Both the position numbers and the translations under genes were made by a program. This document shows, in pieces, positions 4,462-40,987 of a stretch of DNA of 64,000 nucleotides. The notes beneath the pieces are model-generated. The model searched no databases. It was not told the origin of the DNA and saw only the letters and a program-made list of their open reading frames with translations. Origin of the DNA: an uncultured delta proteobacterium (GTDB lineage: Bacteria > Desulfobacterota > Desulfomonilia > Desulfomonilales > Desulfomonilaceae); NCBI GenBank assembly GCA_963789265.1, contig CAWBKB010000005.1:448001-512000 (forward strand). Reading direction: 5' to 3'. Numbering within the stretch: the first letter of the stretch is position 1; each line of letters opens with the position of its first letter.

Positions 4462-4656
4462 TCACTTTTCTTTACGTTCTTTCAGCCGCTCTTCCACTGC
4501 GGCCAGTTCCTTTTTTAATTGGTCACGGTAATTTTCCAGCCACTCTTCTTCCTCTTTTGCAGTGTAGAAATGCCGGAACGAATGACCGCCGCCACCACAG
4601 CCACACGTGCATCCTCCCATCCCTGCAAATCTATGATGTGATCCTGGATGACACAT
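4462..4656 (-). CDS. Small Cys/His-rich protein with C-terminal coiled coil (DUF5320-like)
   Basis: SD GAGGTG; CTCGCGG motif; FxRxFYTxxEExExLExYxxxLxxELxxVEERL tail. Confidence 0.8.
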   Translation of the reverse strand: MCHPGSHHRFAGMGGCTCGCGGGGHSFRHFYTAKEEEEWLENYRDQLKKELAAVEERLKERKEK

Positions 4657-4865: not shown

Positions 4866-5294
4866 TTATTTCTCTTTCCCCACCTTTTCCATTTGGGTCC
4901 GCACCTTTTTCAACTCGTCCTCAAGTTCCTGCTCCAACCGCCGCAGGTACGCCAGTTCTTCTTCCCTTGATTTAACTTCCTCGCCCATAGTCCGGTCCGG
5001 CATCCGACAACTCCCCTCACAACCGCAACGGCAAACGTTAGAGATAACTTCGCCGCATTGATCAAGCGCGGCCTGGTCCACCTCGTAGGGTATCCAGAAG
5101 CCTTTGCGCTGATTCCGAACAAGTCCGGCGTGTCTGAGGATCTTGAGATGCTGGGATACCGCAGACGGGGTTATGCCAAGCGTTTGTGCTATTTCATTCA
5201 CGTACAGGGGTCCCCTTTGCTTCAGGAGATCAATGATCCTGATCCGAGATTCAACACCAAGGACTTTGAACAGTTCCGCTTCCTTGCGACACAT
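4866..5294 (-). CDS. ArsR/SmtB family regulator with C-terminal CRCGC...C and coiled-coil extension
   Basis: LFKVLGVESRIRII, SAVSQHLKILRHAGLV HTH; tail resembles the 4462-4656 protein. Confidence 0.9.
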   Translation of the reverse strand: MCRKEAELFKVLGVESRIRIIDLLKQRGPLYVNEIAQTLGITPSAVSQHLKILRHAGLVRNQRKGFWIPYEVDQAALDQCGEVISNVCRCGCEGSCRMPDRTMGEEVKSREEELAYLRRLEQELEDELKKVRTQMEKVGKEK

Positions 5295-5388: not shown

Positions 5389-5440
5389 TTGACACGCAAC
5401 CTAAGAATTGCAATAAATATATCAATGGCCATTAATGTAT
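5389..5440 (+). promoter_or_regulatory. Promoter region and ArsR-type operator of the selenoprotein operon
   Basis: TTGACA at 5389; inverted repeat ATATATCAATGG/CCATTAATGTAT (5417-5440, 10/12 match). Confidence 0.6.
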
Positions 5441-5480
5441 TGATTGCTAAATAGCAAAAAGAAGTCCTAAAGGAGAAACG

Positions 5481-5816
5481 TTGCCCGTCAAAGAACAAGA
5501 CAAACCTCTCGATCTCGAACAAAACCTGGGCATCGCAGCCTTTGTGAGCAAGAGCCTTTCGGATGAGAACCGCCTCCGAATCCTTTTGTCGTTGCGCAAC
5601 GGCAGGAAGACCGTCTCTACCATAGTGGAGGAGATGAATCTTTCTCAACCCCTGGTTTCCCATCATCTGAAGGAGCTGAGACGGTGCCTCCTGGTGAACG
5701 TGGAGCGCAAGGGCTTGTTCGTGTACTACGAGATCGCGGACGAGAGAATCATCGAAATAGTTTGGCAACTGGCGTATCTGGCAGCGGATCTGCTCTCGCA
5801 GAGAGATACCTTCTAG
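5481..5816 (+). CDS. ArsR/SmtB family regulator heading the selenoprotein operon (TsoR-like)
   Basis: SD AAGGAG with TTG start; KSLSDENRLRIL, LSQPLVSHHLKELR, VERKGLFVYY. Confidence 0.9.
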   Translation: MPVKEQDKPLDLEQNLGIAAFVSKSLSDENRLRILLSLRNGRKTVSTIVEEMNLSQPLVSHHLKELRRCLLVNVERKGLFVYYEIADERIIEIVWQLAYLAADLLSQRDTF

Positions 5817-5834
5817 CTTTTGGAGTGGAATCAC

Positions 5835-6290
5835 ATGAATAAGGGAAGAATTCAGGACCTTGTCGAGTCAATGGATCCAATTGACGCAGCCAAGGAGATG
5901 GCTGACGCAGCGAAGAAACTCTTCTCTCTTTTAGGAGAAGAAGCACTTCGCGATTTTCTCATCAATCTGATCGGAAACGGGGGCCAGGACAAGATTACCG
6001 GCCTGGTCCACTTATGACTGGCTACATGCATGGACGAAGGTGTCGATCCAAAAGCAATGTGCCAGAGTTTAGTGGAAAAAATAAGTCAATCCGAGCAACT
6101 GCGTTCGGTGACGGACCCGCAGATTCTTATTCTGTTTGAGGACTGGCTGGAAGAACTGGAAAAGGAGGCAGTGAGTGTGATTGAGCGTGGAGGCCCCACT
6201 GCCCCCGAAGACCTGTCCAGAGAGTTGGGTTTATCACAATCCGGCTCGATGTTCCTCATTACGAAGCTCAAAAGAGACGGCAAGATATAG
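5835..6290 (+). CDS. tsoA: Selenoprotein with LULATC motif and C-terminal wHTH-like region (151 aa; UGA=Sec at 6015-6017)
   Basis: ORFs 5820-6017 and 6030-6290 are in frame (TTA TGA CTG GCT ACA TGC ATG); long SECIS-like hairpin follows; the name is recalled from the NCBI LULAXC family. Confidence 0.85.
6018..6065 (+). promoter_or_regulatory. Bacterial SECIS-like hairpin for UGA 6015
   Basis: CTGGC/GCCAG, ACAT/ATGT, GC/GC, TGGA/TCCA, CGA/TCG stems; apical loop AGGTG 20 nt after the UGA. Confidence 0.8.
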
Positions 6291-6328
6291 GTTTTCATCG
6301 TACCCAGAGTTCCGGACTGGAGGCTGAC

Positions 6329-8089
6329 ATGGCAATCGAGGTGAACTGGAAAAGACTTTGGCTCCCGCTCTTGGCGATCACGGTAACGGTGGGAGTTCTC
6401 TGGTTCACAAACAGAGAGGTGACCCCAAGGGAACCAAAGTGGAACGACGTGGTAGTTGAAGCCAGGGAAGGCGGCTACCGGCTCATAAATACCGATGGAC
6501 TCAGGCAGCGGTACGAAGCAGATCCCCGGAGCATTTTGTTGGTGGATGCCCGTCAGGACTGGGAATTTGCAATGGGCCACATAAAAGGCGCGGTCAATTT
6601 CCCAATGGAACCTACTGCGTGGTCGAGATGGCGGAAAAGGGGCAAACTCGCGCAGGCGCTTGGTCCCGACAAGAATCGCTTCATCGTATTTTACTGAGCA
6701 GGACTTACCTGAGTCCGTAGCGACTCTGCCGCTCGTGTAGCGGTGCAACTAGGTTACAAGAATGTATATCGTGACGCAAAGGGGTTTCCAGAATGGAAGG
6801 CTGCCGGTCTTCCCATTGAAAGCATTCCTGCGGATCGGACAAGATCCGCATCTGTACCTGAAAACGCCGGGCCACTATACGGCTGGGCAATGCTCTGGAC
6901 CTTATTGGGTGTCTTCGGAGGCGGACTGGCACTCAACCTTACGCCGTGCGTTTATCCCTTAATTCCTATAACCGTCTCCTACTTTGGGGGCAGGAGCGGT
7001 CAGAGACGCGGAAAATTGGCAGTTCACGGTTTGCTGTATCTGGGTGGTCTGTCCGTGACCAACTCAGTGTTAGGGGTAGCGGCGGCTCTCACGGGAAGCC
7101 TGATGGGAGCGGCGCTTCAGAACCCCGTAGTGTTGGTGGTTGTCGCCGGTGTTCTGGTTTTCTTTGCCACAAGCCTCTTCGGATTCTGGGAGCTGCAACT
7201 TCCCCAGAATCTTGCAAGGGCAGCATCCAAGTCGTACGCAGGATACTTTGGTACGCTGTTCATGGGCCTGACTCTCGGTGTAGTTGCAGCTCCGTGTCTG
7301 GGACCTTTCGTCCTGGGGTTGCTTACTTGGGTGGCGAGTATGGGCAGCCCTTGGTTGGGTTTTCTCATCTTCTTCACGCTCAGCCTTGGGTTGGGAGTGC
7401 CGCTCTTTATCCTGGCGATGTTCTCAGGCAGCCTGGAAAAGCTCCCCGGTTCGGGTGAGTGGATGCTGTGGGTGAGAAAACTGATGGGCTGGGTGTTGAT
7501 CGGAATGGCTGCGTATTTTGTCAAACCTCTGTTACCGTCCTCGGCAGGTGTGTTTGTATTGGCGGCAGTAGCCCTAGCAGCAGGGTTGCACCTGGGGTGG
7601 ATCGACGGTACTCAAGCCGGTTTCAAAGCATTCGGCGTGCTGAGAAACGTGGTCGGTATAGCCAGTGTAGTCTTGGGGGCTTTTCTGCTCGGTTCCTGGC
7701 TAATGGTAGGACCTGGAGTCTCATGGCGACCGTATTCCGATGAAGCACTCGAGCAGGCCCTAAAGTCTAACAAGCCGGTAATCGTAGATTTTTCCGCAAC
7801 GTGGTGTACGCCATGCCGTGAACTCGAAGATATTACGTTTCGTGATCCGCAAGTGGTGAAACAGGCTAAAGACGGCTTCGTCATGGTCAAGGTTGACCTG
7901 ACCAAAAAGGGGAACCCGCTCTACGAAAAACTGGTCGCGCTATATGCGATCAAAGGGGTCCCGACGGTGGTTTTCTTCGACGGTCATGGCAGAGAACGTG
8001 CCGATCTGCGCCTGGTTGATTTCATCCCCGCTGATCAATTCTTGAGCAGAATGACTCAGGCAATGCAATCATGGAACTCGGGTTCATGA
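6329..8089 (+). CDS. tsoB: Rhodanese-DsbD(beta)-thioredoxin fusion selenoprotein (586 aa; UGA=Sec at 6695 and 6710)
   Basis: ORFs 6329-6697 and 6743-8089 are in frame: IVFY-U-AGLT-U-VRSDSAARVAVQLGYKNVY...GFPEW completes the rhodanese fold; then LTPCVYP, AAPCLGP and WCTPC. Confidence 0.9.
6727..6747 (+). promoter_or_regulatory. SECIS-like hairpin downstream of the tandem UGA codons
   Basis: GCCGCT-CGTGT-AGCGGT stem-loop; loop 21 nt after UGA 6710 and 36 nt after UGA 6695. Confidence 0.65.
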
Positions 8090-8117
8090 GAACCCGTAAA
8101 ACAAGGAGGGAGGAATC

Positions 8118-8393
8118 ATGTTGAAAGTCCGCTTTTTTATGAATGAACCCAATGGCAAGCCTTGAAGACACTTCAAGGAAATGGCGTCCAGGTTGGGCGC
8201 AGAATACCCCATCGACATTGAAGTTACGTCAAAGCCACGCGCTGAATACCGAACCGATGAATGGGCCGAGACAGAACTTCCCTGCGCTCCGGCAATCATG
8301 ATCGGCGAAGACGTTGTGGCAGAAGGGTCGGATGTTACCGAAGAGAAGGTTGTTGCCGAGATCAGAAAACAACTGAGTATGCCCCCAATTTAA
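8118..8393 (+). CDS. tsoC: Thioredoxin-fold-like selenoprotein with NEPNGKPU motif (91 aa; UGA=Sec at 8163-8165)
   Basis: SD GGAGG and ATG 8118; MLKVRFFMNEPNGKP-U-RHFKEM continues in frame into ORF 8181-8393 (LPCAPAIMIG); the C-terminus may be cut short by an indel. Confidence 0.85.
8184..8200 (+). promoter_or_regulatory. SECIS-like hairpin for UGA 8163
   Basis: GCGTCCA-GGT-TGGGCGC; GGT loop 25 nt after the UGA. Confidence 0.7.
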
Positions 8394-8484: not shown

Positions 8485-9337
8485 ATGAATATGCTCATCA
8501 TAGAGAATGAGCCAATAATAAGGCTCGTTTTTTTCCTGGGAATATTTTTGGCTGTGGCGTTGGGAGAGCTCGCCGCCCCTCGCCGCCGCCTTCTCACATC
8601 CAAGGCTTCTCGCTGGTTCGCTAACATAGCGATAGTCATCATAAATACTGCCGTTGTAAGATTTATGTTTCCTGTCGCAGCCGTAGGCATGGCAGTAATT
8701 GCGGCTCAGAAGCATTGGGGACTCTTTAACAACCTCGCGATGACGTTACTGGGTCGCTGTCGTCTTGTCGGTGGTCATTCTTGATTTCGTAATTTACCTG
8801 CAGCATGTCTTGTTCCATGCAATTCCGATCTTTTTCCGATTGCACATGATGCACCACGCGGACTTAGACTTTGATCTGACTACAGGCACTCGTTTTCACC
8901 CAATCGAAATCATCCTTTCCATGCTGGTTAAAGTCGCAGCCGTTGTCCTCATCGGAGCGCCCGCAGTGGCGGTCATCATCTTTGAAATGATCCTGAACGC
9001 TACATCTACATTTAATCACGGTAATGTGCTTCTCCCTCTGGGGATAGATCGAGTGTTGCGGCTACTCGTGGTCACCCCTGATATGCACCACGTTCATCAC
9101 TCTGTTTTTCCTTTTGAGACGAACAGCAACTTCGGCTTCAATTTTCCTTGGTGGGATCGCCTCATGGGAACTTACCGAGACCAGCCAAGATCGGGCCACG
9201 TTGAGATGGCAATAGGGTTGAATCAGTTCCGAGACCCCTCGCGCCTCACACTACTAAGAATATTGGCCCTCCCGTTTGTCGGCACAACCGGCAACTATCC
9301 TATCAATCGCCGCGGCGTTTCCGGTGGAGATTCTTGA
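8485..9337 (+). CDS. Sterol desaturase/fatty acid hydroxylase superfamily membrane protein (frameshift ~8745)
   Basis: His boxes HVLFH, HMMHH, HHVHH; RFHPIE; NSNFG..WDRLMGTY; two ORFs joined by a +1 shift. Confidence 0.85.
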
Positions 9338-9404: not shown

Positions 9405-10572
9405 CTAACTCTCTCTCAGCGCGTCAACAATCTTCAGGCGAGCCGCTCTCCATGCCGGCAGCAATCCGCCCATGAAGCCCATTGCAATAGCGAAAGCCAT
9501 TGTGGAACCGGCAATGGACGGGGTCAGTTCGAATCCGAAGGCCAACTCAGAAAAGGTGCTCCAGTTCATTGTTGAAATGGTCAAAAATTGAAGTAGCGAA
9601 CCGCAAGCCACTCCTGCTGTGCCTCCGATCAAGCCGAGGAGGACAGACTCGGCCAAAAAGGCTACCAGGATGTTTCTTCTCCTGAATCCAAGCGCCCTCA
9701 GGGTGCCGATTTCGCCGGTGCGATTGGCTACCGCGGAGTACATTGTCACCATGGCCCCGAGTATGGCGCCTATGCTGAAAAACATCGTCGTGGCAAGTCC
9801 CAATATCCGGATAAACTTGGCCATCACTTCAGACTGTTCTTTGTAAAATGCGATCTCCCGCTTAACTTGTACCGGAGAGACGCGGATCTTTTTCCAGGCG
9901 ATTTTTCAAGTCCTCGAACGCCTTTCGTCCGGGCACTTTCAGTATTACGTCAGAATAAGCGGTCCTTCGGAACGCGGACAGCAACTGATCGACATCTCCC
10001 CACACCTCGGAATTAAAAGCTGTTTTGCCCGCGTCAAATACACCCACGACGTTCCAATCAGAAAGAGCGAAATGCAAGGTTTGGCCAAGTGAGCCGCCTG
10101 TGACGGTCTCCGCGATGCTTTTGCCGGCGATTACTTCTCGGGAACCCGGCCGAAAAGTCCGTCCCGCAATCAATTTCACTTGAGGCCTGAGATCCATGGC
10201 CTTCATCCCAACTCCTCGCACGACTACATTTGTCGGCTTGCCCGTCTTCTTTTTCGGCACGGTTACCAACACAAGGGCCTCTTTGGACGCGATGGGCCCG
10301 CCGCGCGCGTCTTCGGCTATTTCAGGCTGAATTTCTATAACCGCGGCTGAATCGCGGTCGATGACACTGGATACCTCTGTTTGCGCCGAGCCCCTCAGGA
10401 CTATGGCATTACCGGGAGAACCCGTGTCGATCAGAGTTTGTTGTAATCCCTGGGCTAACATCAGCACCGCAGCAAAGACAAAGGTGACAAGAGCCATGCC
10501 TCCCGCGGTGAGAATACTGGTCCATTTTCTTGTCCAGAGATTGCGGAAACTGTAGCTAAAAGGTATGGCCAT
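9405..10572 (-). CDS. FtsX/MacB-like ABC transporter permease (frameshift ~9873)
   Basis: YSFRNLWTRK; RTGEIGTLRALGF; GGLLPAWRAARLKIVDALR; removing one G joins the two ORFs. Confidence 0.85.
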
Positions 10573-40241: not shown

Positions 40242-40368
40242 TGCTTCCCCCAATATTAATTGGCGCTGGAGACTACAGGCTACAATATTGTAAGTGTCGA
40301 GAAAAGACCCCAGATTTATTCGCGGTTGCGTCCCAATCTTTTCTGCGCTACTAAGTTTGATTACAAAA

Positions 40369-40767
40369 TCAGATCCTGTTCTCCGAGATCATCACTCGCT
40401 TTGCAGCTTCAAGCAAAAAAGCGGATCTGGACATGTTGTGTCGCCGAGCATAATCGTCAATCGCCTCCAGCTCATTTTTCGGCAACGTAATGTTAACTCT
40501 TTTGGTCTTGTTATCCGGCACGGTGACGAGGAAGGGTACCGCACCGGCGTTGGCGGAGTCAGACATGATATCGTCCAGAGAACTGGGTGTAGGAATAGGA
40601 TCTCCGTCTTCAATCATACCCTTGATATGGAACTTCAAAACCTCCGAAGCTCTTCTGTGAGCTTCGTCCAGAGATTCTCCTGCGGTAATGCACCCCGGGA
40701 AGTCAGGGAAATCAACCCCAAAATCGCTGCCATTTTCTTTACGAAGCAGCGCTATATAAGTTGCCAT
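40369..40767 (-). CDS. hicB: HicB family antitoxin with C-terminal ribbon-helix-helix
   Basis: FGVDFPDFPGCITAG; RVNITLP...SRSAFL. Confidence 0.92.
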   Translation of the reverse strand: MATYIALLRKENGSDFGVDFPDFPGCITAGESLDEAHRRASEVLKFHIKGMIEDGDPIPTPSSLDDIMSDSANAGAVPFLVTVPDNKTKRVNITLPKNELEAIDDYARRHNMSRSAFLLEAAKRVMISENRI

Positions 40768-40769
40768 TT

Positions 40770-40987
40770 TTATGTCCTTTTCAGTGCTTTAATATTTTCC
40801 CTGAGTGTAAGCCCTGATTGTCGTCTTATGCTGCTGAGCGTCCCTTCAGGGATGTCTTTAACCGGGTGTGTGACGGTCTCACTCGACCGGGTTTCGTAGG
40901 GTGTTTAAACTGAAGGTGATCGCCTTCCCGGGCGACCTGGAACCAACCGTCGGCCTTGATCCGTTTTATCACTTCCCGACTGTCCAT
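40770..40987 (-). CDS. hicA: HicA family mRNA interferase toxin (2-nt insertion ~40880)
   Basis: MDSREVIKRIKADGW...GDHLQFKHPTKPGRV + TVTHPVKDIPEGTLSSIRRQSG in the shifted frame. Confidence 0.85.

Follow-up and report, generated by a model that had tools for sequence, protein, structure and literature searches.

A tsoRABC operon with four in-frame UGA codons in a Desulfomonilaceae genome: predicted selenocysteine sites and a putative DsbD-type relay to a di-selenocysteine rhodanese domain

We analysed a 64,000-nucleotide stretch of DNA (hereafter the window; positions 448,001 to 512,000 of contig CAWBKB010000005.1, assembly GCA_963789265.1) from an uncultured delta proteobacterium of the family Desulfomonilaceae, in which positions 5481-8393 almost certainly hold, to judge from the sequence, a real selenoprotein operon, tsoRABC, a member of the Tso ("three selenoprotein operon") system. 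An earlier note, made from the letters of this DNA alone, had placed in-frame TGAs at 6015, 6695, 6710 and 8163 in three consecutive genes, and these coordinates proved exact. Read directly from the sequence, the genes lie on a single strand in the order R-A-B-C with intergenic gaps of 18, 38 and 28 nt, and tsoA, tsoB and tsoC are each preceded by GGAG, a Shine-Dalgarno-like motif. Under translation table 11, tsoA, tsoB and tsoC are each split into two or three open reading frames (ORFs), and each becomes one frame when TGA is read as selenocysteine (Sec, U). The genes and the four codons are as follows.

5481..5816, plus strand: tsoR, ArsR/SmtB-family repressor, 111 aa, TTG start; NF045707, Pfam HTH_5
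5835..6290, plus strand: tsoA, LULAxC selenoprotein, 151 aa, with U61, C65 and C76 and a winged-helix-like part at 95-151; NF045695
6329..8089, plus strand: tsoB, 586 aa, with an anchor, a rhodanese domain (U123-x4-U128), a DsbD-type membrane domain (C207, C323) and a thioredoxin domain (C493-x2-C496); NF045694
8118..8393, plus strand: tsoC, NEPxGxxU selenoprotein, 91 aa, modelled thioredoxin fold; NF045708
6015..6017, plus strand: UGA for TsoA Sec61, TGA kept in all full-length relatives aligned
6695..6697, plus strand: UGA for TsoB Sec123, in the rhodanese catalytic-Cys column, TGA in all loci aligned
6710..6712, plus strand: UGA for TsoB Sec128, inside a two-residue insertion in the active-site loop, TGA in all loci aligned
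8163..8165, plus strand: UGA for TsoC Sec16, TGA in all full-length relatives aligned

The identity of the four genes was established by profile scans against NCBIfam, with its curated cut-offs and models of equivalog or exception type, and against Pfam, U being entered as C throughout. Each protein passed its NCBIfam model over the whole model length: TsoR against NF045707 with 150.3 bits (cut-off 115), TsoA against NF045695 with 213.2 bits (cut-off 170), TsoB against NF045694 with 995.6 bits (cut-off 805) and TsoC against NF045708 with 136.2 bits (cut-off 45). The names TsoA, TsoB and TsoC, which the earlier note had given, were therefore confirmed by these models. With TGA at each U, the motifs read L60-U61-L62-A63-T64-C65 in TsoA (HL-U-LATC), FY-U123-AGLT-U128-VRS in TsoB and N9-E-P-N-G-K-P-U16 in TsoC, in agreement with the Cys-like or redox-motif contexts described from the letters alone. 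It had also been suspected that the system might be catalogued; this was correct, since the NCBIfam models exist and a 2026 review (PMC13188914) describes the families, listing TsoA, TsoB and TsoC with the motifs LULAxC, UxxxxU (2 Sec) and GxxU and crediting publication of the system to Haft and Tolstoy (2025, mSystems 10:e0141724). The genes here also follow the order of the catalogued system, and none of the features compared sets this locus apart from it. The tsoRABC operon at this locus is thus real, already catalogued and published, and not new, and as a discovery it adds little, the curated models letting NCBI's annotation pipeline name the system on sight.

The reading of the four in-frame UGAs as selenocysteine codons is supported by the conservation of these codons among relatives. 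TsoA matches were found at 46 places in 41 of 401 sampled genomes of the phylum; 41 of these places were near end-to-end matches, each with exactly one TGA, and the five places without a stop were C-terminal partial matches. When the read-through frames of 40 fetched loci were aligned, the TsoA Sec column was TGA in all 38 full-length relatives, both TsoB Sec columns were TGA in 24 of 24 loci, and the TsoC Sec column was TGA in all 26 full-length relatives. A second set of 80 named loci from species-representative genomes, which overlaps the 40 fetched loci and so is not independent of them, gave TGA in 81/81 TsoA, 59/59 TsoB and 78/78 TsoC sequences. No Cys codon stood at the Sec columns of TsoA, TsoB or TsoC among the relatives examined, and a search with the TsoA profile through 1.84 billion representative proteins yielded no Cys version of TsoA. 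Just two database proteins matched at high coverage span the TsoA Sec column, and both have W there, that is, a TGA read as Trp; most of the other strong matches to the TsoA profile are fragments lying before or after the stop. The earlier note had proposed to look in homologs for Cys or TGA at these positions, and what the relatives carry is TGA, with neither Cys codons nor gene ends.

It had further proposed a search for selA, selB, selC and selD. In the same genome (6.06 Mb, 9 contigs, 95.6% complete) we found selB (386 bits), selA (594 bits), selD (360 bits) and tRNA-Sec (71 bits), all above the family cut-offs. Its suggestion to consult raw reads was answered in part: contigs of a public sequencing run were identical to the window at the TGAs at 6015, 6710 and 8163, while 6695 lay outside the contig pieces; as this run is possibly that of the source sample, the agreement is not independent. 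According to the review (PMC13188914), most selenoprotein families hold more Cys than Sec members, and compared with such families four selenocysteines in one small operon, with no Cys versions found, are unusual. The selD gene of the same genome (G000:C7:193442-194362, minus strand) also holds one in-frame TGA, by which the selenophosphate synthetase would itself be a selenoprotein.

Hairpins resembling the selenocysteine insertion sequence (SECIS) follow the codons. The apical loop of each begins 18-25 nt past a UGA.

6032..6049, plus strand: tsoA SECIS-like hairpin, loop AGGUG
6711..6726, plus strand: first tsoB hairpin, loop CGUAGC, its 5' arm beginning inside the second UGA
6728..6744, plus strand: second tsoB hairpin, loop CGUGU (CGGGU in most relatives)
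8185..8199, plus strand: tsoC SECIS-like hairpin, 6-pair helix, loop GGU

The stem-loops with a G/GGT apical loop about 20-25 nt after the UGAs that had been described earlier were recovered for three of the four loops; the first tsoB hairpin, with its CGUAGC loop, does not fit that description. In 38 distinct tsoA sequences all 228 of 228 cells of the 6-pair helix were paired, and pair 20-33 was compensatory (AU in 24, GC in 13 and GU in 1). The second tsoB hairpin likewise kept all cells paired while pair 36-48 varied between GC (14), AU (5) and CG (3) and pair 39-45 between CG (20) and UA (2). In the first tsoB hairpin four of the five pairs were invariant and pair 18-31 was broken in 2 of 22 sequences; both synonymous stem positions (GTC, GAC) were fixed in 22/22, as against 1 of 162 comparable positions elsewhere in tsoB. 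The tsoC hairpin had 94.2% of its cells paired in 26 distinct sequences, with no compensatory changes. Compared with shuffles, the folding energy was low for the tsoA stretch (z -3.0), and the other three stretches did not beat them (z from -0.8 to +0.35). By itself, folding energy counts for little here; what counts is the conservation of the predicted hairpins across relatives, which is far beyond chance. Since the two tsoB UGAs are 15 nt apart and the two tandem hairpins stand at a matching offset of 15-17 nt, the arrangement suggests one SECIS element per tsoB UGA, the first hairpin being partly built from the second UGA. An alternative hairpin for the first tsoB UGA (6701-6706 with 6711-6716) was rejected, its pairing not being kept in the aligned relatives.

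Two features upstream of tsoR bear on the control of the operon.

5389..5394, plus strand: TTGACA, a -35-like hexamer read directly from the sequence
5410..5447, no strand assigned: putative TsoR operator, a 38-bp palindrome with core 5419-5438, consensus ATATMAAT-N4-ATTKATAT

The palindrome lies just downstream of the TTGACA; its arms are 85% complementary and its core has 2 mismatches to the consensus. In many related loci, too, a TTGACA is found a short distance upstream of the palindrome, and a consensus scan called no full promoter at this site in the window. A site with at most 2 mismatches was found in 26 of the 38 regions upstream of tsoR, compared with 2 of 760 shuffles, the consensus having been derived from the same upstream sequences that were then scored. 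Genome-wide the consensus occurred at 4 places and a reversed control at 5, which gives no indication of a wider regulon. This conserved palindrome, as a putative operator, supports the description of the operon as ArsR-regulated in the earlier note. A second match to the consensus within the window (40754-40773, 2 mismatches) coincides with the beginning of a short ORF on the minus strand (40351-40773) that reads like an antitoxin-type DNA-binding protein; with 0.56 matches expected by chance per window, this match is probably unrelated to tso.

TsoR itself matched PF01022 (HTH_5) with 51.8 bits and NF033788 with 80.7 bits. ArsR/SmtB metal sensors use Cys or His/Asp/Glu ligand sets at alpha3 or alpha5 sites. 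Among 35 aligned TsoR sequences there was no conserved Cys and none of the ArsR/SmtB metal-site residues; C69 of the window's protein is Ser, Ala or Asn in the others, and the sole invariant His pair sits in the recognition helix. The persulfide- and sulfite-sensing repressor regulons (BigR, CstR, SqrR) are alike in that an ArsR-fold repressor adjoins rhodanese, DsrE-like and TauE-type genes; however, TsoR reached only 38 bits on the BigR model, far below its cut-off of 155, and BigR relies on a Cys pair for sensing, while no Cys is conserved in TsoR. The gene tsoR stood directly upstream of tsoA in 38 of 38 cases (one tsoR being in two pieces) and in 80 of 80 named loci. Since TsoR lacks a conserved Cys, TsoA may be its sensor partner, an assignment that we regard as possible and hold only tentatively. 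A predicted complex of two copies of the window's TsoR with TsoA residues 62-151 scored 0.13, against a mark of 0.32, a value that speaks neither for nor against the pairing.

In TsoA, alignment showed U61, C65 and C76 to be invariant columns. No Pfam model matched the protein above threshold. Residues 95-151 of the model superposed on winged-helix domains with Z 6-7 in VIA, whose rows cover 95-151 only, and no fold match was obtained for the N-terminal, Sec-bearing half. The C-terminal part is in this respect like FeoC-like and other small winged-helix proteins; TsoA differs from them in that it has no FeoC match itself and that its N-terminal Sec part matches nothing. Apart from the database proteins described above, the full-length matches to the TsoA profile have a Met-rich N-terminus, a NPMxMC + ATPExRxLFEEW core and the same winged helix. 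On the TsoA model these relatives, which lack Sec, gave 54-80 bits, short of the cut-off of 170; on Pfam FeoC they reached about 21 bits and so equalled or slightly exceeded its cut-off of 21 bits. They occurred in 4 of the 401 genomes of the phylum, in three of the four behind a TsoR-like ArsR gene. The listed places of non-Sec, Met-rich TsoA relatives behind TsoR-like ArsR genes are the following.

L088, 7608-8357
L090, 7309-8264
L179, 937-1884
L089, 7667-8881

This sample is too small to generalise from, and it is consistent with TsoA-like proteins acting as partners of an ArsR subgroup. A wider family with a Met-rich or Cys-bearing N-terminus, the NPMxMC...ATPExRxLFEEW core and a winged helix is apparently unnamed. 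As the Sec version of such a family, TsoA could be the subunit that senses the ligand in a two-protein repressor, and not an enzyme, the Sec61/Cys65/Cys76 triad reading a signal that is passed on through the winged helix or by direct contact with TsoR; we consider this doubtful, a shade more so than the sensor role as such. Both this reading of TsoA and TsoR and the tandem-hairpin detail of tsoB may have been published before. Between the TsoR-like gene and the Met-rich relative there is often a 72-aa membrane/coiled-coil ORF, and in L089 the relative is followed by a gene that, by sequence reading, resembles an ArsM-type methyltransferase.

In TsoB, Pfam placed Rhodanese (PF00581) at 68-159 with 57 bits, DsbD_TM (PF02683) at 189-401 with 142.8 bits and Thioredoxin_7 at 466-551, and a hydrophobic segment at 10-28, preceded by K8 and R9, resembles a signal anchor. 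Exactly six chalcogen residues are invariant in 22 TsoB sequences (U123, U128, C207, C323, C493 and C496), and on this alignment they are three pairs laid out as in DsbD. As in DsbD, ScsB and CcdA, a membrane domain with two invariant Cys residues is present, here followed by a presumably periplasmic thioredoxin domain with CxxC, and the DsbD model NF001419 matches TsoB residues 187-578. The match aligned only from model position 167, however, and its 226.8 bits are below the cut-off of 330; in place of the Cys-pair alpha domain of DsbD, the N-terminal acceptor of TsoB is a rhodanese with two Sec residues. The topology of DsbD is established knowledge, and by homology with it the rhodanese and thioredoxin domains of TsoB should face the periplasm.

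The rhodanese domain resembles the rhodanese sulfurtransferases in that U123 aligns with the catalytic Cys of the solved rhodaneses 6mxv, 2hhg and 3d1p and that the loop-closing Arg-Ser is kept, the Arg (R130) being the anion-binding one of the fold. It differs from them in that T127 and U128 form a two-residue insertion before this Arg-Ser, lengthening the loop and providing the second Sec, and in that the domain shares one polypeptide with its own source of reductant. Periplasmic rhodaneses as such are familiar, Sud and PspE being examples. The model for a rhodanese-related (seleno)protein, NF041203 (LYCAU), gave TsoB only 38 bits against a cut-off of 115. We consider it quite probable that TsoB is a DsbD-type conduit that would keep a periplasmic di-selenol rhodanese site reduced, and the "electron-transfer system" proposed in the earlier note fits this predicted DsbD-like build.

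For TsoC, no Pfam model matched above threshold. Its structural model, with a predicted local distance difference test (pLDDT) score of 91.8, places Sec16 after a Pro in the first turn of helix 1, and the best Foldseek matches were thioredoxins (E about 3e-4, template modelling score 0.5-0.66); profile matches to solved thioredoxins were not significant (E 0.3 or worse). The modelled fold is therefore like that of thioredoxin, whereas the active site, G13-K-P-U16, has no CxxC: the first Cys is replaced, giving G-K-P-U in place of C-G-P-C. SelW/Rdx-type proteins, for comparison, are CxxU proteins. Having no signal sequence, TsoC is probably a cytoplasmic partner.

Across relatives, tsoR-tsoA is the invariant core and the genes downstream of it vary. 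The commonest architecture among the 80 loci was R-A-B-C, found exactly in 23 and with added genes in about 30 more. Other layouts continued with B-C and a second TsoC, with X-B-C, or with B, a GcvH-related gene and C, sometimes followed by a DsrC/TusE-like gene, and in loci without tsoB, genes for DsrE-like proteins (sometimes with a TGA), TauE/SafE, TsoX and TsoY stood behind tsoR-tsoA. The neighbours were annotated by clustering their frames and then scanning 14 + 12 cluster seeds. Taken together, the constancy of tsoR-tsoA, the variable downstream genes, the conserved palindrome and a TsoR without sensing residues suggest that R and A may form a regulatory core that drives interchangeable chalcogen-handling effectors. 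A search for TsoX and TsoY in the window's genome gave no match, a weak negative given that the positive controls gave none either. All 80 records carry names of the former Deltaproteobacteria/Thermodesulfobacteriota or broader labels, and the closest TsoA relatives (81-87% identity) come from metagenome-assembled genomes labelled Desulfomonilaceae or Desulfomonile.

Some of these loci showed further variation. L063, L065, L066 and L068 carried a second TsoC paralogue, whose motif is C-x3-U (NEPCGxxU or NDPCGLTU), and some genomes held two to four copies of tsoA, including tandem tsoR-tsoA pairs (duplicates in L051, L071 and L083). DsrE-like neighbours had an in-frame TGA in L062 (8711-9031), L054, L067 and L077 and none in L083-L085, so that the DsrE-like gene exists in Sec and Cys forms, unlike TsoA, TsoB and TsoC.

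Overall, we read the operon as a repressor-controlled, DsbD-type transmembrane reductive relay that ends in a periplasmic di-Sec rhodanese, and we put the probability of this reading at about 0.75. TsoR, an ArsR-fold repressor that itself has no sensing residues, probably occupies the palindrome at 5410-5447 just downstream of the -35-like hexamer. TsoA, in the cytoplasm, with the Sec61/Cys65/Cys76 triad on its helical N-terminal part and a C-terminal winged helix, would be the likeliest sensor or redox partner to relieve the repression. Electrons would pass through TsoB from the cytoplasm to C207/C323 across the membrane, then to C493/C496 of the periplasmic thioredoxin domain and on to the periplasmic rhodanese domain, which would replace the DsbD alpha domain, with Sec123 at the catalytic Cys position and Sec128 in the longer loop. 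There, the two selenols may trap a chalcogen, be it sulfane sulfur, polysulfide, or selenium derived from selenite or Se(0), in a Se-X-Se or Se-Se adduct, which the TsoB relay would reduce and then release. TsoC, as a cytoplasmic thioredoxin-fold protein, is a likely cytoplasmic donor or carrier. That the substrate is a chalcogen species is a leaning that falls short of even odds; the lead comes from the DsrE-like, TauE/SafE, TsoX and TsoY genes behind tsoR-tsoA in loci without tsoB and from the DsrC/TusE-like and GcvH-related genes beside tsoBC.

Several observations weigh against this reading. The substrate is its weakest link, being guessed from neighbours in other genomes, and in the window none of the sulfur-relay neighbours of those genomes turned up in the first 18 kb, the part that was searched. 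Diselenides are more difficult to reduce than disulfides, so that a plain cycle from Se-Se to 2 SeH driven by the thioredoxin domain is questionable. The all-helical model of TsoA has a pLDDT of only 47-63 for residues 41-100, around the Sec site. The first tsoB hairpin has neither a GGU-type loop nor covariation, so one hairpin might serve both tsoB UGAs. The literature searched by Tso names and motifs yielded the 2026 review and a database paper citing Haft and Tolstoy, and no experimental work on Tso proteins. In addition, several genes near tso are split in the assembly, so single-base errors exist in it, although the TGAs themselves are conserved across genomes. One rival reading is that there are no selenoproteins at all and that the TGAs are true stops, sequencing errors or pseudogene lesions that leave seven short ORFs. 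The splitting of the tso genes under table 11, the other split genes nearby and folding energies that beat the shuffles for only one of four stretches would all agree with it. It is nevertheless highly improbable, and as far as sequence analysis reaches it is already refuted: every relative examined has a TGA in the same column with the protein conserved on both sides, the hairpins covary, the Sec machinery is present in the genome, and the contigs of the public run, possibly from the source sample and then not independent, agree at 6015, 6710 and 8163.

Two other functions were weighed against a chalcogen-handling relay. The main rival substrate would be a soft metal or metalloid (As, Sb, Hg etc.), with the TsoA triad binding the metal(loid) and signalling to TsoR, and with the di-Sec loop of TsoB serving either as an oxyanion reductase of the Cdc25/Acr2 type or as a periplasmic chelator kept reduced by the DsbD module. 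TsoR does belong to the ArsR/SmtB family, but it is without the known metal-site residues. The loop of TsoB, U-x6-R, is longer than that of rhodaneses, as is the C-x5-R loop of Cdc25/Acr2, and Cdc25 chains were among the sequence matches, but these covered only query residues 30-85 and not the loop. Methyltransferase genes lie near several tso loci, the ArsM-like one of L089 follows a Met-rich TsoA relative, and the N-termini of the non-Sec TsoA relatives are Met-rich, a composition typical of soft-metal binders; against this, the recurring neighbours are of sulfur-relay types (DsrE, DsrC/TusE, TauE, rhodanese) and not ars or mer genes, and next to the operon the window shows no gene for arsenic or mercury resistance. 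We regard a metalloid substrate as unlikely, although it is the main rival to a chalcogen. An envelope antioxidant or repair system, in which the di-Sec domain would be a periplasmic peroxidase or a protein-disulfide/sulfenate reductase recycled by a DsbD-type relay, much as ScsB/DsbD feed peroxiredoxins or Msr, appears improbable. Sec is good at reducing peroxide, relatives of DsbD/ScsB feed envelope peroxiredoxins, and TsoB, with its three redox pairs, is built like DsbD; yet the acceptor has a rhodanese fold with the anion-binding R130 kept and neither a peroxiredoxin nor an Msr fold, the neighbouring genes suggest sulfur trafficking, and TsoA would be left without a role. For work at the bench the locus offers several handles: a putative operator, the predicted electron path through TsoB, TsoA as a candidate sensor, and sulfur-relay neighbours that narrow the search for the substrate.

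The genes flanking the operon in the window were also inspected. Downstream, a gene of the fatty-acid hydroxylase family (PF04116, 90 bits) appears split over two frames, 8485-8784 and 8765-9337 on the plus strand, by a frameshift or an assembly error. Two minus-strand ORFs in different frames (9862-10572 and 9405-9827) together read like one FtsX/ABC-type permease, likely with a frameshift, and these split permease ORFs across 9405-10572 suggest indel errors in the assembly. Upstream and divergent from tsoR lies a second ArsR-family gene (4866-5294, minus strand), whose product has a Cys-rich CRCGCEGSC stretch and a charged C-terminal tail and which has homologues near tso in 5 other genomes; it is followed on the same strand by a 64-aa ORF (4462-4656) with a Cys/Gly/His-rich start, which matched DUF5320 with 18 bits, below the cut-off.

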